Source of the DNA: Escherichia coli
Lineage (GTDB): Bacteria > Pseudomonadota > Gammaproteobacteria > Enterobacterales > Enterobacteriaceae
Strand: one strand, 5' to 3'
Length of the DNA: 64,000 nucleotides
Assembly (NCBI RefSeq): GCF_022846255.1
Contig: NZ_AP025682.1
The position numbers were made by a program, and so were the translations under genes. Below, piece after piece: positions 1 through 13,615 of the stretch; position 1 is the stretch's first letter; each line of letters opens with the position of its first letter. The notes beneath the pieces are model-generated. The model did not search any database and had not been told where the DNA came from. It worked only from the letters and a program-made list of their open reading frames with translations.

Positions 1-1650
1 CTGACGGTCACCGTAACGGACTGTGGTGGAAATCCGGTTGCCAATGCCCCCTTTAGCATCAGACGTGGCGATGCTATAAATCGTCAAGGAACGGTGAATT
101 CAGCCAATCCGGTTTCACTGGATTCAACGGTTTTAACCAATACCTCGACGGAATATAAAGGAACAACTGGAGAAGACGGCACGGTGAATATTGCTGTAAC
201 CCAGAAGTCTGGTGAAGGGGTGAAAACTCCATTGTATATCAGTACGACCGGGATGGTTCAGCCGATCCAGCAGGATGTTATTTTCACCGTTGTAACCAGT
301 CCGGACAGTACGCTCGCCAATATGTGGGGCCATATGCCAGAAACCCTGACTGCGGCCAATGGGACTGTATTTGCTCGCCCCAAACTTTCTGCTGAAGCTA
401 ATGGCGGTGGTGGTACACAATCTGAGACTAACGAAGTATGGGCGATATTTAACCATAAGAAAGCAATTGCATCAGGAGCGAATGCGGTTGGTTGCGGTGG
501 GATGGAATACGTTCCCAGCGAGGAAAATTTGCACTCACTCTATAGTGCATTTTCTTCGGGAAACATCAAAATCACCCAGGGATGGCCGGTTTCTGTAATC
601 TATAAGTCCTCGACACCCGACAAATATGTAACAACAGCTCGTAATTACAATGCGGTTAACCTGAGCACCAACAGTGTGAAAGGTCAGCAAACATCCAATT
701 CAGTACACTATTTAGTGTGTCAAAAAGAGGCTGCTCCTGTCATAAAATCAATAGCCATCAGCACTCAAGATTCTCAGTATGTGTCGGTAGTAGGGTTCAA
801 TGACGCCAGAGATAATGGGGGTAGAGTGAAAACTTTTGATGCCCTGAAATTAAAAACATGGGGTAAGGGCAGTGGTTCGATGACGGTTAAAGTGACGGGG
901 AGCGATAATAAGCCATTAAAAAATGGTCCGTTTATGCTGCTACACGCTCCTGGGTTTGATCGCCAGGGCGGTATACACGCAAATCATACCGACACGGTTC
1001 AGTTTAAAGATAGTCATAGCAGTAGTACGAATAGGAATATGGGGGCTATGGACGTTTATTATGGGACAACAAATGATAGCGGTGAGCTGACGTTTTCATT
1101 AAGCCAGCCGCAGGATGGAACTGGACTAGCCGTGATCATGAGTGCCCGAGATGACGATTATGTTCATAATATACTCAGTAATGATTTCCCTGTTATTTTT
1201 GCGACAGAGACGAGCCCGGATACGAAAGAAGCGAAGTATTGGGGGTATATGTCTGAAACACAAGTACTTGGTGGCAGAGTATTTAATCGTCCTAAATTGG
1301 TGAGTGAGTTACCGGTGTCTGGGGATAGTATTAGTCCTGGAGGCGCTGATGCTGAGGTTTGGGCAGGGATTTCCGGGGATGATTCTCTTGCGGGTATTAA
1401 CGGTGGCTGTGCAGCAGATAAACGACCAACAGTAGCGGAGTTAAATGATTTGCGGTCTGTATATAATACGAGTCACCAATACGGCTACTTTATGAAAGGG
1501 GGATGGCCTGCAATCGGTAAAGATACTGGGCAGAATGAATACTGGACAGATGTTGCCGAGGCGCGTTTTGGATACATGGAGATGTATTCAGGAGATGTAC
1601 ATTACATTGCGGGTGGCCTAAACACGGCAATGCAGATCTGTGCGCAGTAA
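1..1650 (+). CDS. 3' end of a giant Ig-like repeat protein (Rat-family-like); the reading frame is open from window position 1, so the gene starts upstream of the window
   Basis: Frame 1 is open from nt 1 to the stop at 1648-1650 (ORF track lists only from the first Met at 94). The translation has two Big_1-like segments and two copies of the FTV.TSPD..WG(H/Y)M..RPKL motif that recurs nine times in the 2693-aa protein downstream. Confidence 0.75.
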   Translation: MTVTVTDCGGNPVANAPFSIRRGDAINRQGTVNSANPVSLDSTVLTNTSTEYKGTTGEDGTVNIAVTQKSGEGVKTPLYISTTGMVQPIQQDVIFTVVTSPDSTLANMWGHMPETLTAANGTVFARPKLSAEANGGGGTQSETNEVWAIFNHKKAIASGANAVGCGGMEYVPSEENLHSLYSAFSSGNIKITQGWPVSVIYKSSTPDKYVTTARNYNAVNLSTNSVKGQQTSNSVHYLVCQKEAAPVIKSIAISTQDSQYVSVVGFNDARDNGGRVKTFDALKLKTWGKGSGSMTVKVTGSDNKPLKNGPFMLLHAPGFDRQGGIHANHTDTVQFKDSHSSSTNRNMGAMDVYYGTTNDSGELTFSLSQPQDGTGLAVIMSARDDDYVHNILSNDFPVIFATETSPDTKEAKYWGYMSETQVLGGRVFNRPKLVSELPVSGDSISPGGADAEVWAGISGDDSLAGINGGCAADKRPTVAELNDLRSVYNTSHQYGYFMKGGWPAIGKDTGQNEYWTDVAEARFGYMEMYSGDVHYIAGGLNTAMQICAQ

Positions 1651-2200: not shown

Positions 2201-4375
2201 ATGCTGCGATGGACACGCTGTATTATGCTAACATTTATCTCTGGGGCTGCTTTTGCGGCTCCAGAGATAAATGTTGAGCATAAAGAATCATTACCTGATT
2301 TAGGTAGTCAGGCCGCACAACAAGAAGAACAAACCAACAAGGGGAAATCGCTAAAAGAGCGTGGTGCCGATTACGTCATTAACTCCGCCACGCAAGGGTT
2401 TGAAAACTTGGCCCCTGAGGCGCTGGAATCTCAGGCCAGAAGCTATCTGCAAAGTCAAATCACCTCAACCGCACAATCTTATATTGAAGACACACTCTCT
2501 CCCTACGGTAAGGTCCGTTCGAACCTCTCCATTGGTCAGGGCGGCGATCTGGATGGCAGTTCCATCGATTATTTTGTTCCCTGGTACGATAATCAAACCA
2601 CTGTTTATTTCAGCCAATTTTCTGCACAACGAAAAGAAGATCGTACGATCGGGAATATTGGGCTTGGTGTAAGACATAATTTTGATAAATGGTTGTTGGG
2701 TGGAAATATATTTTATGATTATGATTTTACCCGTGGGCATCGCCGTTTAGGTTTAGGTGCCGAAGCGTGGACTGATTATTTAAAATTCTCTGGCAACTAT
2801 TATCACCCGCTTTCTGACTGGAAAGACTCCGAAGATTTCGATTTTTATGAGGAGCGTCCTGCGCGCGGCTGGGATATTCGCGCCGAAGCCTGGCTTCCCG
2901 CTTATCCGCAGCTTGGTGGTAAAATTGTTTTCGAACAGTATTACGGTAATGAAGTCGCGCTTTTTGGCACTGATAATCTGGAGAAAGATCCCTACGCGGT
3001 AACGCTTGGACTGAATTATCAACCAGTGCCGTTACTGACAGTTGGGACGGACTATAAAGCGGGGACCGGAGATAACAGTGATGTCAGCATTAATGCCACT
3101 CTTAATTATCAGTTTGGCGTTCCGCTAAAAGATCAATTGGATAGCGATAAAGTGAAAGCGGCGCACTCGCTGATGGGCAGCCGTCTTGATTTCGTTGAGC
3201 GTAATAACTTTATTGTTCTGGAATACAAAGAAAAAGATCCGCTTGATGTCACCCTGTGGTTGAAAGCGGATGCCACCAACGAGCACCCTGAGTGCGTCAT
3301 TAAGGACACTCCCGAAGAAGCCGTCGGTCTGGAAAAATGTAAGTGGACCATTAACGCACTCATTAATCATCACTACAAAATCGTTGCGGCCTCCTGGCAG
3401 GCGAAAAACAATGCTGCCCGCACGCTGGTGATGCCGGTTATCAAAGAGAATACTCTGACAGAGGGTAACAATAACCACCGGAACCTGGTGCTGCCTGCCT
3501 GGCAGTACAGTTCCGATCAAGCCGAACAAGAAAAACTCAATACCTGGCGGGTTCGTCTGGCGCTGGAAGATGAAAAAGGCAATCGGCAGAGCTCCGGTGT
3601 GGTGGAAATCACCGTTCAACAGGACCGTAAAATTGAGCTCATCGTTAACAACATCGCCAATGTACCGGATAAGAGCAATCACAGCCACGAAGCCAGCGCA
3701 CAGGCCGATGGTGTAGATGGTGTAGTGATGGATCTCGATATTACTGATAGCTTTGGCGACAACACTGACCGCAACGGTAATGTCTTGCCGCAGGATAATC
3801 TCAACCCGCAGTTGTTTGATGCCAACGATAAAAAAGTGACGCTGACGAATAACCCCTGCACTACCGAGACTCCCTGTGTCTTTATCGCCAAACAAGATAA
3901 AGAAAAGGGGACCGTTACGCTCTCCAGTACGTTGCCTGGCACCTTCCGTTGGAAGGCGAAAGCTGCTCCCTATGATGACAGTAACTATGTTGACGTAACG
4001 TTCCTGGGTTCTGACATCGGCGGGCTGAATGCCTTTATCTATCGTGTTGGTGCGGCTAAGCCCGTGAATCTTATCGGCAATAAAGAACCGTTGCCTCTCA
4101 ATAGCAGCTATCGCTTTGTGTTGTGGCGTGACGCTAACAAAGACGGCGTGTTCCAGCTATCAGAGAAACTCACTGAAGAGGAGATGAAACAGTATGACTA
4201 TCAGTGGGAATTCACGGGACATAGCGTGAATGGCAATACCGGTGCGCAAGCCAATACCACTAACGTCGATATAGAGATCCCGGCAACGAACAAGGAAGCG
4301 GCAGCGAAGTTTAGTGCCCAGGTAACCGATGGCGTGCAGGGATACGGTTTGCAGGTCAATTACAGCAAGAAATAG
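2201..4375 (+). CDS. sinH: Inverse autotransporter adhesin of the intimin/invasin family (SinH-like), 724 aa
   Basis: N-terminal signal peptide (…FISGAAFA/APE). Residues ~110-330 show intimin/invasin beta-barrel-type sequence (DYFVPWYD, LGLGAEAWTDYLKFSGNYYHPLSDW, GWDIRAEAWLP, LGLNYQP), followed by an Ig-like passenger. RBS GGAAAAGG upstream. Confidence 0.85.
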   Translation: MLRWTRCIMLTFISGAAFAAPEINVEHKESLPDLGSQAAQQEEQTNKGKSLKERGADYVINSATQGFENLAPEALESQARSYLQSQITSTAQSYIEDTLSPYGKVRSNLSIGQGGDLDGSSIDYFVPWYDNQTTVYFSQFSAQRKEDRTIGNIGLGVRHNFDKWLLGGNIFYDYDFTRGHRRLGLGAEAWTDYLKFSGNYYHPLSDWKDSEDFDFYEERPARGWDIRAEAWLPAYPQLGGKIVFEQYYGNEVALFGTDNLEKDPYAVTLGLNYQPVPLLTVGTDYKAGTGDNSDVSINATLNYQFGVPLKDQLDSDKVKAAHSLMGSRLDFVERNNFIVLEYKEKDPLDVTLWLKADATNEHPECVIKDTPEEAVGLEKCKWTINALINHHYKIVAASWQAKNNAARTLVMPVIKENTLTEGNNNHRNLVLPAWQYSSDQAEQEKLNTWRVRLALEDEKGNRQSSGVVEITVQQDRKIELIVNNIANVPDKSNHSHEASAQADGVDGVVMDLDITDSFGDNTDRNGNVLPQDNLNPQLFDANDKKVTLTNNPCTTETPCVFIAKQDKEKGTVTLSSTLPGTFRWKAKAAPYDDSNYVDVTFLGSDIGGLNAFIYRVGAAKPVNLIGNKEPLPLNSSYRFVLWRDANKDGVFQLSEKLTEEEMKQYDYQWEFTGHSVNGNTGAQANTTNVDIEIPATNKEAAAKFSAQVTDGVQGYGLQVNYSKK

Positions 4376-4430
4376 GATCAGCGCCATGGCTGATCGGGCC
4401 ACCGCTGAATGTTAACCAAGGAGAGTGTTT

Positions 4431-5423
4431 ATGAAACCTCATATGAAACGTGGCCTGACAAAAGTCGCGCTGGCGCTGATGCTGGCTGGATACTGTGCCG
4501 TGCCAGCCGCTATGGCGGAAGATGCCGCCTGGGTAGACAGTGGGACGACCGCTGAATTCGAAGGGACCATACCCTGGCTTTATCGCGAGGGGGGGAATGC
4601 CACGATTAACTCGGATGATGCGGATCACATCAAAGTAACGTCTGATGGTAAAGGTACTCGTCCTTCAGGTAGCGAGACGGATAAACGCCTTTACTCAGGA
4701 GATACCATCACGTTGGGGTGGGATATCGGCGATACCGAAGGGGATATCGACGATGGTCCAGATGGTATTGATGCGAAAACGACGGCGACTATCAAATGGT
4801 ACAGCTACAGCGATAATGCGGGTGGCGGTAAAACGGAGCTGACCGCAGCGGCGGGTAAGACGAGTTATAAACTCACTGATAACGAACGTGGGCGCTATAT
4901 CGGTGTTGAAATCCAGCCTATCACTCAGACCGGTAATCCCTTCCAGGGAACGTCGCTGACTCTGCTGGATATCTCAACGGCCAGCGGTGGCGGCAGCGAT
5001 ACGGACAATGTTGATCCTGGCCCGGTTGTGAACCAGAACCTGAAAGTCGCCATCTTCGAGAAAGGCACCAGTACCAACCTTATCGGTGGTAATACAGCCA
5101 TTGCGCTTAACAAAACGTATGTGGCCAAACTGTACTCGGATGAAAACCAGAACGATAAGTACGATGCGGGTACGGATGTGGACGTTACCGCTAACTATGA
5201 CTTTGCATGGGTCTTTAACGGTAACAGTAAACAACTTGCTGCGGCGGGTGGTATTGCCAACGCCAGCTTCGATAACAATGACATTGTTATTCCGCAAACT
5301 AACGAACAAGCAAGAGCCAGCCTTAACGGTAGTGACCGTAATGGTAAGACCGGTCTTGCAATCCCGGCAAACGGCGACGGCGTCCAGGGCTATACGCTGT
5401 CTATCATTTACAAACACCACTAA
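4431..5423 (+). CDS. sinI: Secreted protein of unknown function (SinI-like by position), ~330 aa
   Basis: AAGGAG 7 nt upstream of the ATG at 4431 (ORF track starts at the GTG at 4425). Signal peptide (…AVPAAMA/EDAAW). C-terminal DGVQGY motif shared with SinH; N-terminal W…G.T.EF.GT.P motif shared with the giant protein. Symbol assigned from synteny only. Confidence 0.7.
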   Translation: MKPHMKRGLTKVALALMLAGYCAVPAAMAEDAAWVDSGTTAEFEGTIPWLYREGGNATINSDDADHIKVTSDGKGTRPSGSETDKRLYSGDTITLGWDIGDTEGDIDDGPDGIDAKTTATIKWYSYSDNAGGGKTELTAAAGKTSYKLTDNERGRYIGVEIQPITQTGNPFQGTSLTLLDISTASGGGSDTDNVDPGPVVNQNLKVAIFEKGTSTNLIGGNTAIALNKTYVAKLYSDENQNDKYDAGTDVDVTANYDFAWVFNGNSKQLAAAGGIANASFDNNDIVIPQTNEQARASLNGSDRNGKTGLAIPANGDGVQGYTLSIIYKHH

Positions 5424-5431
5424 TGCGCACC

Positions 5432-5462
5432 AACAGCATTCCCGTATGGGAATGCTGTTTTC
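5432..5462 (+). terminator. Intrinsic terminator or attenuator between the sinI-like gene and the giant gene
   Basis: Inverted repeat ACAGCATTCCC / GGGAATGCTGT with loop GTAT, followed by TTTTCC, 9 nt after the stop codon. Confidence 0.45.
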
Positions 5463-5533
5463 CGCCTGTTTTGCTTAGCGACGCGTTAAGCAAAACGGGT
5501 TGACGTTTTGTTTATCATGCTGGAGTTTTCTAC

Positions 5534-8500
5534 ATGTCGGTATGTCTGAAACCAGGAAAAATCATTGTGCTTCTGGGCATGTTGGCAGCCTTTATGCTGT
5601 CTGACTTTGCACGGGCAGGAGTGGAATGGCAGACATATCCTGGTTCTACAGGCGAGTTTAACGGTACAGTTCCTATTGCCGATAGCGCCAGCGTACCCGT
5701 CTATCAGGGAAGCGTTCAGCTTGATCCTGCTGCATCTCATGATGTGGCGTTTTCTGCTAAACCGAATGAATTTAGCGTTGACGATGACGCTGCTAACCTG
5801 ATAGTCGCTAATCCTCAGGACAGTGAAGGCGACCAGTTTTCCACACCACCTGCGCTGCGCTGGGAAAAACAAACGCCGCCGACCGTTAGCCTGGTGTGGG
5901 CCGATGCCGCCACGCCGGATACGCCGCTTAATCCACAGCCTACCGCCAACCGTAGCTTTTGCGCTCAGGGCCTGGCCGGGCGTTCGCTGGTGGCCTGGCC
6001 GCAGATTGATGCGCAGCAGACCATTCCACTGCTTTATCTGCTGACTTCGACCGGTTATCCCTATGAGGGGACGGTGGCGCTGGCTGACCAGAAAGTGACG
6101 CTGAACATCGCGCCCGCGCAGGGCGATTTAATCTCGGTGAGCGCCAGTGGTTATAACGAAACGATCGCGGCGGCGAAAACCACCGTTGGTGACACCATCA
6201 CGCTAACTGTTACCACCAAAGACTGTCAGGGCAACGTTGCGGGCAATATTCCTTTTATTATCAAACGACAGGATGCGAAAAACCGCCAGGATGCGGTGAA
6301 TAACACCGCACCGGTGGTGCTGGATAGCACCGAGTTAACGACGACCGCGACCGAGTATCACGGCACATCGGATGCCAACGGTACGGCAACCATCACGGTG
6401 ACCCAACCTAATGGGCCCGGCGTCAAAACGCCGCTGGTGGTCAGCATCTCCGGCATTGCGCAAACCAGTGAGACGGCGGTTATTTTTACCGTACTCACCA
6501 GCCCGGACGTGGCGCAGGCCACGATGTGGGGCCATATGGCGGAAACGGTTGAGGCTCATGGCTACACGTTCAGCAGGCCAAAACTGGCGGCAGAAGTCAG
6601 CAATGAAAATGCCACGGTCGTCGATCACAACGAAACCTGGTCAACTTTCACCTGGAGCGGGGCAGACAGCCATTGCACCGTGCTGCCGGGCATGCGCCAT
6701 TTCGGCGCACTGGCGACCGTTATTCCCACCACGGTACAGACTGTCCTCGGCTGGCCGATGCAGGATGATTATTACTGGACATCGCTGGCGGGCACTACCG
6801 GGCAGCACCATGCGGCGGATGTCTCTAACCGTGCTGAAGCGCAAAAGCCGGATAGCACCACGTTTCTTGTAAGCTGCGTGGACAAACCCGCGCCTGACGT
6901 CGAACCGAAAATCGTCCTTACGCCAGAAAACTATGATGATACGGCACAGGCGATGAAAGCGAAGGTGGGTGAGGACGCCACGATGCGTCTGACGATCACC
7001 GACAATAAAAACAACGATCAACCGCTGGCGTATTACTACTTCTCGCTGCATCTGGATGACGGCGTTAACCGCAAAAATCAAACCGATCCTGCCTGGGAAG
7101 CTCATCCGGTACAGATTGCTGGCGGCAGTAATTTTCGCCAGGTCGACGCACATACCTATGAGGGCATGACTGATGTCAACGGTCAGGCTTCGCTAACCCT
7201 GAGCCAGCCTGGTGGCGCGGGCGTTAAAACTCACATTACGGCGAAAATGCGCAGCGATTTTAACGCCACGGATGCCAAAGATGTGATTTTTACCGTAATC
7301 ACCAGCCCGGACAGCGACAAAGCGCGGATGTGGGGCCATATGCGCGGCATTATTGAGTCCGGCAGTCTGTATAAACGCCCGTTGCTGGCGGATGAAACCG
7401 AGCATGAACTGGGAACAGTGCGGGAAAACAACGAAGACTGGGCGTTGTACGATCAAAACACCAGTATGCAGGCGGAATGCGGGGTGGGTCATATACCGCG
7501 CCAGAGCTCACTGGAAAGCCTGTTTTCAGCCCATCCCGGTAACGCGATTGGCACTGAGTATGGCTGGCCCACCGCACAACAGAGCTACCTAAGCGCGGTG
7601 GAGCAAGAAACGCATTCATCGGTGAATCTGGGGAACGGGAGCGTCGACAGCTATTCCGGCTTTAAGCAGAATTACCTCTCCTGTTCGGGTAATGAGATGG
7701 TAGCGAATGTTGAAGTCAGCACCGATCATGATGTGTCTGTTGGCACCCAAGCGCAAGCCAAAGTGGGTGACACCATCGTAATGACCGTGCGTACGATTAA
7801 CTCGCTAAATAATTCCCCGGTACCCTTTAGCGCATTCACCATTACCAAAGGTATGGGATATAACCGAGCGGGACAGGTGAGCGGGTTTGATGACCCGAGT
7901 AGCGGCGCAATCACGATGGATAACTCGCAATATGGTACATCACAGCCATCGATGGTTTATGCGGGAACAACCGATGTCCGGGGCGTGGCGACGGTCGAGA
8001 TTAAACAACCGCAGGGCGTCGGGCTAAGAACGGCGCTGAGCGTAACGCCGGTAAATTCCTACCTGCCGAATACCGTTAACTACAGCGTTATTTTTACCAC
8101 CCCAACCAGCCCGGATGTTTCCGGCGCGCAGATGTGGGGCCATATGGATGAAACGATTACCGTTGATTCATCAACCTTTAGCCGGCCTAAGCTGGCGGCG
8201 GAAATCGCCAGCCCGGACGGAACCCTGACCGAAAATAACGAAATCTGGGCGCGCGTGAGCCAGGCCAATACGTCCAGTACCAGCAAAGGCGGCTGCGGCA
8301 CCAATATGCTGCCGCGTCGCTCCCAGCTAAGCGCGTTGTATAGCGCCAACAGTGGTAACGCGGTGCAAACGACGCACGGCTGGCCAACGCAACGTCAGCC
8401 CTACTGGAGCAGCTCACCGGCGGATGTGACACCGCACTTTTTCACGATAGCGCTGAACGATGGCGCGCAGGCCATCGGCGGCAATACGCCGGTTTACGTC

Positions 8501-11500
8501 AGTTGCCTGACGACGGCGAACAAGCCTGCCAGCAGCATTACGCTGGAGGTGGTTGATAAAGCGCAATGGAATGCGGGGAATAACGCGGCAAAGCTGAAAA
8601 AAGGTGAGACACTACAGGTTAAAGTGACAGTAAAAGACTCGCAGGGTAACGCGTTAGCGGATATGCCATTTACCCTCAGTCGCGGTGATGGCTATACCCG
8701 TAGCGGCGAAAAACATATTGCCGGTAGCGGCGATGCGCTGGTAGCGCCCGTGGTGGTCAATGGCGGGTTGGCAGATGAAACAACGTTGAATGACACTGCA
8801 ACGGTGTATACCGCCATGACCGGCAGCGACGGCAGCAAAATCCTTAATATTACCCGCCCGGATACCCACGGCACCAAAACGGCGCTGACGGCAACGCTTT
8901 ACTCCGATGCGACGAAAAAAGACAGCCTGGACACGATCTTTACGGTGGTTACCAGCCCGGATAGCAGCCAGGCGAAAATGTGGGGGCATATGCCGGAAAC
9001 GGTGACGGCTGAGGACGGTACGGTCTTTAAACGCCCGCGGTTACTGAAGGAACTGAGCAGTCAGACTGGGCGAACATCAACGCTTGAAGACAACGAAAAC
9101 TGGGCGTTGTTTAACATTAATTATGCGAGCTCTTCCACGACGTATAGTGGCTGTGGAACCAACTATATTCCAACTCAGGCTGGTCTGACGTCACTGTTTG
9201 CTAATAATGCGGGCAACACCATGAAAACCGTGCAGGGCTGGCCGGTGGCAACGCGCTATTTGTCCAACACGTCCGACAATGGCAGCATGGAGCAGCGTAA
9301 CTACAAGGCGGTCGATCTCAGCAATGGCACGAGTGCGGCAGTGTCATCAACGGCGCTGCAACTGCTGACCTGTCAGACTACACCGGTAACCACGGTGAGC
9401 CAAATCCTGCTGGAAGCGGCAGATCCGGCGACGCTGGATACCACCTATAACGTGGTAAAAGCGAAAAAAGGCGAAGAATCCGTGGTGCGCGTCACCACCA
9501 AAGATGCACAAGGCAACCTGGTGGGCAATACGGCATTTATCCTGACGCGTGCCAACAGCGTGAGTCGGGCTAATGCATCAGCGACGATGAGCGTGGGCTC
9601 GTTGACGGTGACGGATGCCTGGGGCAATACGCGAAATAATTTCCAGTCGACAAGTGAAACCATTTACGGCGTGACCGGTGCTGATGGGGCAACGACATTG
9701 ACCCTGAAACAGGATAACAGTACCGGGTTAAGAACCGATCTCACGGCAAAACTGGATACGTCCAGCAGCGTCAAGGCAACGCTACCGGTGGTCTTTACCG
9801 TCGTGACCAGCCCGGATTCGCCAAAAGCGAATTTTTGGGGACATATGGCCGAAACGGTGGCGGCCTCCGATGGCTCGGTTTATAAGCGACCATTGCTGTT
9901 TGGCGAACTGACCAACAACTATGCGCGATATAGCACGCTTGAGAACGGAGAAAGCTGGGCAAGATTCACCTCGACTCAGTCGATTGACACCAGCATGAAT
10001 GGGTGTGGTACAGATTATATGCCGACGCTGGATGGTCTGAAGTCTTTGTATGACGCCAATAGCGGTAATGCGATGAATACGGTGCAGGGATGGCCGGTAA
10101 ATACGAGTTATCTCACCAACACCCCGAGTGATACACAAGCAGGGAGCCGTTACTACAATGTGGTGCAACTGAATTCTGGCGCGGTTTCGCAAATCGTATC
10201 CACAGTGCTGGCGTTACAAACCTGCCGCACGACGCCGTTGACGACTGCCAGCCAGATTACGCTGGAAGCCGCGGATCCTGCGCAGTTTGTCAGCATTGAT
10301 AGTACGCTTAGCGCTGTCAAAGCGAAGAAGGGCGATGAGGTGTCGATCCGCATTTCGACTAAAGATGCGCAGGGGAATTTAGTCGGCAATACGCCGTTTG
10401 CCCTGAAACACGCGAACTCGATCAATCGTCAAAATGTGACGTCATCGCAGAAAGTGTCGGTCACGACTGCAGCGGGTACGACGGTGGATACCAGTGCAGC
10501 GACCATCCTGTATGGCGTAACCGGGCCAGACGGAACGACGACGATGGCGCTCCGACAGGATGCGTCCACCGGACTACGAACCGACTTTTATGCCTTGTTG
10601 AACGATACCGGCGTGTCGTCGGGCACCTTGCCGGTGATCTTTACCGTTATCACCAGCCCGGACACGCCGCTGGCGGCCAACTGGGGCCATATGGCGGAAA
10701 CCTTTACCAGCAGCGAAGGCGTTACCTTCAAGCGGCCTTTCCTCAAAGCTGAACTTTCCGGCGGTACGGCGAAAACGGTCAATAATGAAGTCTGGTCGCT
10801 CCTGACATCGACTGAGAAAGCGGACGCCAGCAAGGCCGGGTGTGATGAGGCGTATCAACCGCAGACGACAGACATGCAGGGGCTGTATGCCGATTATCCT
10901 AACGGCCAACTGGCAACGGTGCTCGGCTTGCCGACTGCCGCCGGGAACTGGTGGGATTATGACATGATGGCGGCAGTGAGCAATAGCTGGAGTTACCAGG
11001 TGTTTTCGCCGGGTAATGGCCAAACGATTCAGGCATCGTCCGGCTATACGGCGGTAGTGATGTGTCTGGTAAAACCACATACGGAAGCGGCCACAATAGA
11101 GATTACCTCGACGGCGCAGGACGCAGCAAAATCGGCCAGTAATGGTGGACGACCGAGCGCCGTAGCGAAGAAAGGTGAGACGATTCCGTTGACGGTGACC
11201 GTGCGTGATAGCGCCGGGAACCCGATGCCATATGCCGACTTTACCCTCTCGCGTGAAACGACGCTGGATCGCTCGAAAACAGCTGTTAACAGTGCGGTGG
11301 ACGATCTTACCGTAACGGCATTGGTACCGGCGAACAGGGATAGCGTGTTGACAGCGAGCGGAGCAAAAACTCTCGCAACGACGGGCAGCGATGGCACTGC
11401 CACCTTTGAGGTGGGGCAGTACTCTACGACCGGGCTGGCGACGCCGTTAACCGTGACGCTGGCGCGTGATACGACGAAAGCTGCCACGCTGGATGTTATC

Positions 11501-13615
11501 TACACGGTGATCACCAGCCCGGATTCGCCGAGTGCGAAATTCTGGGGGCATATGCCAGACACCTTTACCAGCTCGGCGGGCGTCACCTTCAAACGGCCGT
11601 TGCTGAAAGCCGAAGCGACGTCAGGCTCATCAATTAGCACTAACGGTAACGGTGAAGTGTGGGCGTATATGAGCAACTTGCAAAATTTAACATCGACAGA
11701 TTGCCCGCTGGAGTATCAGCCGCGCAGCAACGAGCTGTTGGATTTATATAGCGATCACCCGAACGGCGCGATAATGACTGACCTGGGGCTACCGATATAT
11801 GCAGGCAAGTGGTGGGCTTATGATATGGTCATGCCGGATTTATATACGTGGCAGTATCAGACTGTCAGCCTGAGCACCGGAGATATCGCGAAGAGCTCGT
11901 CAACCAACGCGCTGATGCTTTGCCTGACGAAGCCGCATCCGGCAGGCGTCAGCGTAATGTTGACGTCATCCGCAATGGATAACGCCAGAAGCCTCAGTAA
12001 TGGCGGGCGACCTAGCGCGTCAGTGAAAAAAGGCAACCCACTGCCAATTGTAGTGACGGTCAAAGATCGTGATGACAACCCGCTGGCGGGAGAGGCCGTG
12101 ACGCTCAGGCGTGGTTCAGCGATGAGCCGTTCAGGAGCAGTAGTGGGCACGCCGGCAAATGCAATGACGTTGACAGAGTTGACACCCGTGTCGGCGGAGT
12201 TTTCTCTGGCCGCACACGATACGCAATGGCAAGGTTTCACCGGCAGTGATGGTACGGTCACTTTCAATGTTGAACAGCCTGAGACCATCGGCCTGGCCAT
12301 CCCGTTCACCGCTATACTGGCGCGAGATGTGGCAACCACAACTGTCCTTGATGCGATCTTTACCGTCGTCACCAGCCCGGATTCCACAATGGCGACCTAC
12401 TGGGGTCATATGCCGGATACGGTCACGGCGGAAAACGGCGTGGTCTTTGAACGGCCTAAATTGTTGAAAGAGTTGCCGTCGAGCACCGGAATTAGTCAGG
12501 TGACGGATAACAATGAAGTCTGGCCGCTGTTTAAGGCAACGCAAAGGGAAGATAGCAGCCTCAGTCCTTGTGAAGCGGCGCGTCGGCCATTGAGCGATGA
12601 TTTAGAATCGCTCTACGCGCGCTATCCGGGGAACACGCTGACGACACAAATCGGTTGGTCTACGCGGTATACATGGTGGGCGCTGGATAACTGGCAGGGG
12701 AATGCCCAGGTTGTTAGTCTGAGTGATGGCTTAAAGTGGTCGACGGTGAATACCGCGTATCAAGGGTGTCTGGTTAACCCGCGCGCGACGGTCTCCAGCG
12801 TCACGCTGACATCAACGGCGCTGGATGACGCCACACAGGCGGCGACGGTGAAAAAAGGCGACGCCGCGCCCATTGTCGTTACCGTAAAAGACAGCGCCGG
12901 GAAGCCGGTGCCAAATATCGCTTTTACCCTAAAACGCGGTGAGGCCGTGCCACGTAACAGCGGGGCGACGCTGTATGGCGATGTGGATGCGATGGACGAT
13001 TTGGCCGTGCAACCTTCATCCGGTGCGGCAGTCACGTTGGCTGACAGCGGAAATACCATCGACGGAGTCACGGGAGCGGACGGTACGGCAAGCTTTACCG
13101 TTCGTCAGGATAATACGCCAGGATATAAAACGCCGTTGACGGTGACGCTAACGGATAACGCCACCATAACGGCGACGCTGGACACGATTTTCACCGTGCC
13201 GACCAGCCCGAATGTCGCCACGGCGTATTTCTGGGGTCATATGGCGGATACCGCCACGGTAAGTGGCAAGACGCTGCATCGCCCGCTATTAAAATCGGAG
13301 TTGCCGTCAGGCGCTACCGCAGCAGCAACGCCTGATGTAAATAATGAAACCTGGGCGCTGGCGCATGTTATGGATTCCTCTAAATGGGATGTCGCGCAGC
13401 AGTGCGGCAGTATGAATAACGTGCCGAGCAGTGCCGAATTACAAACATTACACTCCGGCTTTAGCACATTGGGATGGCCGTCCTCGATAAGCTTCCCGTA
13501 TTTATCTACTGATAAGGCTGGGTCGTTCTATTGTGGTGTTGATGAAGGCTCTGGCAGTCTCAACTGTGGCATTCAGCCTGCGAAAACGCCGGGGTTTGCA
13601 ACCTGTTTCCAATAA
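5534..13615 (+). CDS. ratA: Giant secreted Ig-like repeat protein (RatA-like), 2693 aa
   Basis: GGAG 6 nt upstream of the ATG. N-terminal signal peptide (…[11 protein letters not shown]), no lipobox Cys. Nine tandem ~280-aa modules, each with a Big_1-like segment, an (I/V)FTV.TSPD…WGHM…RP.L motif and a Cys-pair segment. No beta-barrel-like region recognised. Confidence 0.85.
6170..13500 (+). repeat. In-frame tandem array of nine coding modules inside the giant gene (period ~800-860 nt)
   Basis: The TSPD/WGHM motif recurs at about nt 6500, 7300, 8110, 8950, 9810, 10650, 11515, 12370 and 13205. DNA copies are diverged, with pairs 4/5 and 6/7 most alike. Confidence 0.75.

Follow-up and report, generated by a model that had tools for sequence, protein, structure and literature searches.

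The closest described relatives of the locus discussed here are the sinH-sinI-ratA-ratB genes of the Salmonella CS54 island, with their Escherichia coli equivalent, and the ZirT/ZirS/ZirU system. Secretion of ZirS requires ZirT, an inverse autotransporter (IAT), and ZirS has no two-partner secretion (TPS) domain (Gal-Mor et al., PMC2270342); no recognition signal has therefore been defined. Heinz et al. (2016) described the translocation problem raised by ZirT/ZirS as a 'Gordian knot', compared the similarity of SinH and SinI with that within ZirT/ZirS/ZirU, and called the N-terminal region of the Rat proteins 'highly divergent' (PMC4943183). We analysed 64,000 nucleotides of E. coli (contig NZ_AP025682.1 of assembly GCF_022846255.1; the window), and in it the gene at 4431-5423, whose extent and 330-aa product had been given correctly by an initial annotation made from the sequence alone. 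That annotation noticed that the protein, which is SinI, resembles the giant protein encoded downstream at its N-terminus and the 724-aa adhesin encoded upstream at its C-terminus. The alignments of the termini and the survey of orthologues that it had proposed as checks find both shared modules real and conserved: an immunoglobulin (Ig)-like C-terminal domain common to SinI and SinH, and an N-terminal tag of about 20 residues common to SinI and Rat.

The SinH locus resembles ZirT/ZirS/ZirU in that an IAT is followed by small Sec-exported Ig-like proteins without a barrel that resemble IAT passenger domains; SinI, the barrel-less co-encoded partner, does share Ig-domain sequence with the passenger of SinH. 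The two differ in that IAT-dependent export of a partner has been shown only for ZirT/ZirS, and in that the partners of SinH, unlike ZirS and ZirU, include a 2693-aa adhesin. With classical TPS systems (type Vb, FhaC/FHA) the locus has in common a candidate recognition element at the mature N-terminus and genes for large adhesins beside that of an outer-membrane partner. However, the classical TPS transporter is an Omp85/POTRA protein whereas SinH has a 12-strand IAT_beta barrel, the TPS domain is a beta-helical domain of ~250 aa whereas the tag spans ~20 residues, and Pfam scans of SinI and of Rat residues 1-700 gave no TPS-domain match, which places the locus outside type Vb. A third comparison is with chaperone-usher pili, in which secreted Ig-fold subunits carry a short conserved N-terminal extension and engage in donor-strand exchange. 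If SinI acted as an adaptor, as proposed below, the likeness would include an extension engaged in trans after being held in cis or by a chaperone-like partner, as well as a head-to-tail coupling of Ig domains; unlike those systems, the locus has neither an usher nor a PapD-like chaperone.

The locus itself is sinH-sinI-ratA, an adhesin locus known from E. coli and Salmonella and equivalent to the CS54 island genes and to the E. coli iatB or 'ila' locus. This follows from its NCBIfam matches and its DNA identity to annotated loci. Gene order and families are the same, and three NCBIfam equivalog or subfamily models are passed: inverse_SinH by SinH (NF033423; 1474 bits, cut-off 999), partner_SinI by SinI (NF040711; 370.7 bits, cut-off 165; residues 6-327 on model positions 1-299 of 299) and PRK15316 RatA-like by the 2693-aa protein (5430.9 bits, cut-off 3870). 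The DNA is ~95% identical to annotated E. coli loci with sinH, SinI-family and adhesin genes between der/yfgJ and xseA, the chromosomal site is that of annotated E. coli genomes, between der/yfgJ and xseA, and the adjoining xseA-guaBA genes are 97.8% identical to E. coli. SinH has the layout of a type Ve protein, a beta-barrel of the IAT type at the N-terminus (residues 62-336, Pfam IAT_beta, E=1.8e-107; similar to the barrels of invasin and intimin, 4e1t and 4e1s) and then an Ig-like passenger at the C-terminus. SinI, 98% identical to an annotated E. coli SinI, has a signal peptide, no Pfam barrel domain and, in the AlphaFold2 (AF2) model, two beta-sandwich domains. Its gene starts with the ATG at 4431 (an alternative GTG lies at 4425), 56 nt after the sinH stop, and sinI stands directly 3' of sinH in all fetched loci with both genes readable. 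Rat has BIg21/InvE_AD repeat units from residue 219 on and no Pfam domain was found in its residues 1-218. The features on which the argument rests are as follows.

2201..4375, + strand: sinH, intimin-like inverse autotransporter (type Ve), 724 aa (IAT_beta, inverse_SinH)
4004..4372, + strand: SinH passenger tip domain D3, residues 602-724, chain end ...DGVQGYGLQVNYSKK (BLASTP and hhalign against SinI)
4431..5423, + strand: sinI, SinI-family autotransporter-associated protein, 330 aa (partner_SinI)
4431..4517, + strand: SinI signal peptide, residues 1-29, cleaved between ...AMA and ED, with the LAGYC segment (A-x-A rule)
4500..5680, + strand: divergent allelic cassette, comprising mature SinI, the intergenic stretch and the Rat signal peptide and tag (sliding DNA identity)
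4530..4577, + strand: SinI N-terminal tag, W34-W49, WVDSGTTAEFEGTIPW (conserved columns, hhalign, AF2)
4683..4958, + strand: SinI A9-type Ig repeat domain, about residues 85-176 (hhalign, repeat search)
5040..5420, + strand: SinI C-terminal Ig-like domain, about residues 204-330, chain end ...DGVQGYTLSIIYKHH (paralogue of SinH D3)
5534..13615, + strand: ratA-like giant repeat adhesin, 2693 aa (PRK15316)
5534..5617, + strand: RatA-like signal peptide, residues 1-28, cleaved between ...ARA and GV (A-x-A rule)
5627..5674, + strand: RatA-like N-terminal tag, W32-P47 (conserved columns, pattern, hhalign)

The shared modules of SinI, SinH and Rat

The likeness between the C-termini of SinI and SinH, which had been put at some 30 residues, is that of a homologous Ig-like domain of ~125 aa. 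SinI 204-327 aligns with SinH 609-721 by BLASTP (E=7e-10, 30% identity over 128 columns), profile-profile comparison of the SinI C-domain with SinH D3 by hhalign gives E=1.2e-24, and each protein matches the NCBIfam model of the other (SinH 618-721 against partner_SinI, 83 bits, E=2.5e-23; SinI 211-329 against inverse_SinH, E=1.5e-10). The best-conserved part of the domain is the extreme C-terminus, DGVQG[YF]xLx[IV]xY, where D316, G317, V318, Q319 and G320 of SinI are invariant in 25 sequences; DSSP assigns six strands and one helix to the C-domain of SinI. The domain is familiar on the SinH side, D3 being the 'SinH-3' vaccine antigen, or Ig-like domain 3 (PMC9937491). The sequence similarity of SinH and SinI has also been published, by Kingsley et al. 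(2003) as cited in Heinz et al. 2016 (PMC4943183). Neither the locus nor the SinH/SinI half of the observation is new.

The N-terminal likeness between SinI and Rat is weak in the window pair and real at the level of the families, where it takes the form of a tag of ~20 residues directly after the signal peptide. Between the two window N-termini the BLASTP match is marginal (E=0.21) and the alignment takes in the signal peptides. Its core is an 11-mer, GTTAEFEGTIP in SinI, identical at 7 of 11 positions to a Rat 11-mer at an equal offset in the mature chains; the pair scores 44 where the best unrelated stretch of the window scores 41, and a shuffle test on 40x40 residues of the two N-termini gives p=3e-4. 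The families speak more firmly. First, all of 25 diverse SinI sequences have W34, T40, G45, P48 and W49, and when these are taken with a larger set of 101, T40, G45 and P48 are invariant while W34, T46 and W49 are invariant or nearly so. Second, in 27 Rat N-termini W4, T11, N15, G16 and P19 of the mature chain are invariant. Third, hhalign of the SinI and Rat N-terminal profiles aligns precisely the 20 tag columns (E=1.1e-4). Fourth, the pattern W-x(3,10)-[ST]-x2-[ILVFM]-[NQEH]-G-[TS]-x-P, composed after the first examples had been seen and run over six frames of the window and 20 loci (~480 kb), matches only SinI and Rat open reading frames, in each case no more than about a dozen residues past the signal peptide; both tandem Rat genes of Leminorella have it, and SinH, by the same restriction of matches to SinI and Rat, does not. 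The consensus of the tag is W-x4-5-T-x2-[IF]-[QEN]-G-T-[VI]-P. The likeness is far plainer in most other genera: in one Citrobacter locus SinI has NGNLKSGQWQIVTDSTGTIQGTVPW and Rat has AVLKSGTWQEVNAATDAINGTVPL.

In the 11-mer pair the seven identical residues stand on different codons and third-position identity is 0/11. The likeness of the tags has therefore been kept by selection at the protein level and does not stem from recent DNA copying, and we rejected recent gene conversion between the 5' ends of sinI and rat on the same ground. The N-G-T of the Rat tag was considered as a glycosylation sequon and set aside because SinI has Q or E there.

The signal peptide that precedes the SinI tag is itself unusually conserved (KxxLTKVALALxLAGYC), with A19, G20 and C22 invariant in 101 sequences. 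'LAGY' is kept in SinI-like proteins at 17-25% identity, in which the Cys is substituted, and between two of the loci compared below, L003 and L016, this segment lies in the conserved flank, outside the divergent cassette. A reading of LAGYC as a lipobox was rejected because Tyr at -1 is non-canonical and the Cys is substituted in remote homologues.

Of the shared terminal domain that the initial annotation suggested, the C-terminal Ig domain stands, but at the N-terminus a shared domain is not demonstrable in this locus and the common part is the tag of ~20 residues. Behind the tag, SinI 85-176 is an A9-type repeat, a unit of ~80-100 aa with the signature ..GxxLTxxYxYxDxDGD..W..Y.L...D.GkxI...VTP....G; it matches tandem repeats from giant proteins by hhalign at E=1.4e-15 and recurs up to 27 times in large proteins in a representative search, the Pfam family IG_AIR9 matching SinI only weakly (E=0.065). 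The N-domain of Rat (residues 29-218) has no match to this A9 profile, and a relaxed hhalign of SinI against the Rat N-terminus gives three colinear islands: the tag and, beyond it with low confidence, D[TS]EGD and TxTGxP. We dropped a shared N-terminal domain for the window locus, given the lack of an A9 match in Rat, and claim the tag alone. The possibility that the tag is strand A of the A9 repeat was rejected, since it lies ~35 residues upstream of the self-contained 85-176 match.

Structure predictions place the tag differently in the two proteins. The AF2 model of SinI, made from a 101-sequence alignment, has a predicted local distance difference test score (pLDDT) of 86.4 and a predicted template-modelling score (pTM) of 0.76. 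Its residues 1-30 are below pLDDT 50; its tag (31-50) is at 80-86 and runs into strand 49-52. The model of the mature Rat N-terminus (305 aa, 27 sequences) has pLDDT 85.6, with residues 1-14 of the mature chain, most of the tag, below 50 and the next domain above 86. The tag is thus modelled as ordered in SinI and disordered in the N-terminal fragment of Rat. Searches of the PDB with the single SinI sequence and with the 101-sequence profile gave no match up to E=10. Foldseek with the SinI model found SinI-like proteins in Hafnia, Yersinia, Gilliamella and others, and aligned the entire protein to the last ~290 residues of SinH. A relaxed hhalign also puts the SinI tag on an internal SinH segment, LPAWQYSS...NTW, with moderate per-column confidence, and SinI may have originated as a copy of SinH D2-D3. 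This segment spans SinH residues 431-449, at 3491-3547 of the window, and reads LPAWQYSSDQAEQEKLNTW. In UniProt/AFDB, four of the SinI-like proteins (A0A4Q9ECA7, A0AA90YBE5, A0A2U8I7C8 and A0A6G9I9Y7, from Hafnia, Yersinia, Fukatsuia and Zophobihabitans) carry the name 'ornithine carbamoyltransferase', which is very probably a mistake of annotation.

The same mosaic is found in remote loci made of an IAT, a SinI-like protein and a third gene, with a C-terminal end common to the IAT and the SinI-like protein and an N-terminal tag common to the latter and the third protein. In L022 the order is the C-terminal end of a gene read as an IAT (which ends ...DGLQGYELKVDF), a SinI-like protein of 303 aa and a 362-aa 'mini-Rat'. 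Here the last two share the full N-terminal module, tag plus A9 domain, over 143 residues (BLASTP E=6e-19). Both terminal signatures are retained in L024 and in L025, and L025, an IAT and SinI-like pair without a Rat gene, still has the tag. Even SinI-like proteins of 17-25% identity retain, at the mature N-terminus, T-x2-I-x-G-x2-P and, at the C-terminal end, [DA]G-x-QG[YF]-x-L-x-V. In this type of locus the mosaic is therefore a conserved architecture, and its recurrence lends good support to past duplication or domain shuffling, which the initial annotation had offered as one explanation. Rat has retained the tag while the domain behind it diverged.

Allelic types and the divergent cassette

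At least two types of tag can be distinguished. Type A (the window and loci L001-L005, L009 and L017) has T[AG]EF[EQN]GT in SinI and in Rat; type B has NLKxGxWQ...T[GD][TA]I[QN]GT in both. The tag types of SinI and Rat agree in every type-A locus with both genes readable. Between the types SinI is by far the most divergent protein, at ~40% identity, SinH reaching 70-90% and the N-region of Rat 50-70%; the type-A SinI of the window, the less common allele, is about 41-45% identical to SinI of Salmonella and to the common SinI of E. coli. In three A-vs-B pairs of loci, sliding DNA identity falls at the mature N-terminus of SinI and recovers just past the Rat tag, which delimits the cassette at 4500..5680; its flanks are 93-100% identical between L003 and L016. 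A tree of the Rat N-terminal body with the tag left out interleaves types A and B, and L003, of type A, and L016, of type B, are nearly identical in the Rat body. The variant of the tag goes with the sinI allele and not with the body of Rat. The three elements that the initial annotation had singled out are largely parts of one co-inherited hypervariable cassette.

In SinH, D3 alone tracks the type (identity 0.86 within type A and 0.76 between A and B), the corresponding values being 0.88 and 0.88 for the barrel and 0.93 and 0.92 for D1-D2. One locus, L016, with the Rat tag TGAINGTAP and a SinH D3 near type A, is a natural recombinant. This locus, from Escherichia albertii NBRC 107761, also encodes (at its positions 6300-7319) an intact SinI of 339 aa with a third variant of the tag that lacks the Trp, LKSGASYTMSGSTGGINGTVPW.

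Of 5426 complete E. coli genomes, type-A sinI is present in 753, the type-A rat 5' end in 751, and the contiguous stretch from sinH to the 5' end of rat in 751. A search with window positions 2201-5690 matched the sinH region in 1709 of the 5426 genomes, about 751-753 of them with the type-A cassette, and the remaining sinH-matching genomes have 80-90% identity over sinH only. The split of these matches therefore shows that the locus exists in discrete allelic types in E. coli.

SinI as a possible adaptor

Our best reading, which we put forward tentatively, is that SinI is an adaptor and that the three proteins are coupled through the two shared modules. The sinH-sinI-ratA locus encodes an inverse autotransporter of type Ve together with two Sec-exported proteins without a barrel of their own; in this reading SinI would be built from two coupling modules, the C-terminal Ig domain paralogous to D3 and the N-terminal tag of ~20 residues. 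The tag would serve as a peptide for recognition or docking, and its specificity partner would be found within the sinH-D3/sinI cassette, most probably as an Ig domain of SinI itself. In SinI the tag might be docked in cis, whereas that of Rat, as a free N-terminal extension, would dock in trans. Through its SinH-like C-domain SinI would be linked to SinH, and so could tie the anchorless giant adhesin to the SinH system for export, surface retention or both. Any contact between the proteins, the direction of binding and a part in secretion or anchoring are inferred; the co-inheritance of the cassette and the contrast of order and disorder in the AF2 models support only indirectly the interaction or sorting role that the initial annotation had envisaged.

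A number of points weigh against this proposal. First, no SinH column separates types A and B perfectly, and L016 pairs an A-like D3 with a non-A SinI. Second, the counts of 753 and 751 genomes are marginal totals from a partly clonal population, the three A/B pairs may share one ancestral event, and plain linkage within a hypervariable, possibly immune-selected stretch may account for the inheritance of sinI together with the first ~140 nt of rat. Third, the predicted contrast of order and disorder may come in part from alignment depth (101 against 27 sequences) and from the position of the tag at the chain end in the Rat construct. Fourth, the C-terminal half of the tag runs straight into the first modelled strand of SinI (49-52), so its conservation may be partly structural. 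Fifth, a Foldseek search with the Rat N-terminal model did not return SinI among its top 50 matches, all of which are members of the Rat family.

A more specific version of the adaptor proposal, to which we give rather little credence, is that the tag and the SinH-D3-type Ig domain form a matched ligand and receptor pair, from which a non-covalent head-to-tail chain, SinH D3 to SinI to Rat, would be built for export or holding at the surface, with interchangeable types of cassette. If this were true, such a chain would let an inverse autotransporter export or hold giant adhesins that themselves lack a translocator or anchor, and the sinH-D3/sinI/rat-tag cassette would define interchangeable specificity types. 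In that case type V secretion would have a mode of coupling so far undescribed for it, and the proposed two-partner inverse autotransporters would gain the substrate-recognition element that they lack.

The alternative that survives best, possible though somewhat improbable, is that SinH reads the tag as a signal for secretion. Both SinI and Rat would then be substrates of a 'two-partner inverse autotransporter', the tag would be the counterpart of the TPS domain and would be bound by the passenger or the periplasmic region of SinH, and the likeness of the SinI C-domain to D3 would reflect duplication only. The experimental demonstration that ZirS secretion depends on ZirT (PMC2270342) argues for it, and a model with SinH and a Rat-like substrate was put forward explicitly by Heinz et al. 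(PMC4943183). The position of the tag is also what one would expect, at the extreme mature N-terminus of both putative substrates and not in SinH, as are its retention in remote loci (including the Rat-less pair of L025) and the fact that D3 is the one region of SinH that tracks the type. However, the variable positions of the tag follow the sinI allele whereas most of sinH recombines freely and has no type-separating column, and a secretion signal leaves the modelled ordering of the tag within SinI alone unexplained. A 12-strand barrel plugged by its own linker would, moreover, have to pass a protein of 2693 aa, which is the 'Gordian knot' of Heinz et al.

We regard as unlikely the alternative that the shared parts are relics of an old duplication or shuffling of Ig modules without specific coupling, the tag capping or starting the first Ig-like domain and the cassette resulting from antigenic diversification of surface-exposed parts and from linkage. 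In its favour are the Foldseek alignment of the entire SinI to the last ~290 residues of SinH and the relaxed hhalign that places the SinI tag on an internal segment of that protein, as if SinI were a D2-D3 copy; the cassette, too, is contiguous DNA whose co-inheritance linkage alone could account for, and SinH D3 is an immunogenic tip domain (PMC9937491). Yet Rat has kept the tag although the domain after it has diverged past recognition from the SinI N-domain, most of the Rat tag is modelled by AF2 as a disordered extension outside the fold, and in remote lineages the tag is strictly terminal. Parallel changes (xI to EF, and NLKxG lost) have also arisen in the tags of SinI and Rat on different codons, and the right edge of the cassette falls just past the Rat tag in three pairs, not at the sinI stop or at varying points along the 8-kb gene. 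Finally, a chance resemblance between short, low-information segments, which the pairwise E=0.21 and the scores of 41 and 44 would allow, is effectively excluded by the profile match on precisely the tag columns, by their invariance within the SinI and the Rat families, by the restriction of the pattern to these proteins just after the signal peptide in 21 sequences, and by the retention of the tag in remote homologues.

SinH is a leading vaccine antigen of extraintestinal pathogenic E. coli and its D3 domain, SinH-3, protects mice (PMC9937491). SinI bears a ~30%-identical paralogue of this antigen, the discrete allelic types (type-A sinI in 753 of the 5426 complete genomes) matter for estimating vaccine coverage, and sinH, ratB and related genes are in routine use as virulence markers of Salmonella and E. 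coli. A short N-terminal tag common to both putative partners can be deleted or swapped, which makes the question of coupling directly testable. We found no description of the SinI/Rat tag or of the cassette structure in the open-access papers searched, and an earlier description elsewhere is possible. Because the locus and half of the observation were already known, the gain is incremental unless coupling is demonstrated.

The upstream Rat-like gene and the Rat C-termini

The + strand region has four co-directional genes, for the C-terminal part of a Rat-like protein and for the 724-aa, 330-aa and 2693-aa proteins. The window differs from CS54 and from the common E. coli locus in its less common type-A sinI and in the extra Rat-like gene, which lies 5' of yfgJ. 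The last 550 codons of this second Rat-like gene enter from the start of the window (1-1650, + strand); its frame has no stop before base 94 and the protein ends ...NTAMQICAQ. It lies 5' of the zinc-ribbon gene yfgJ (1777-2001) and of sinH, at the place that der occupies in E. coli genomes. Megablast finds no match to it among the 5426 complete E. coli genomes, and blastn gives only 27% coverage at 74% identity; the G+C content of the region is low, at 45.6%. A candidate for the N-terminus of a short upstream Rat gene, P0148, was rejected, being an ordinary Rat gene 3' of sinI on another contig.

Both Rat-like proteins of the window (13590-13612 and 1627-1647) and the remote 'mini-Rat' (L022 3220-3240) have a Cys 2-3 residues from the C-terminus. 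Their chains end in …GFATCFQ, …AMQICAQ and, in the 'mini-Rat', …ETVACVM, each followed by the stop; the final lectin-like adhesion domain closes with these residues.

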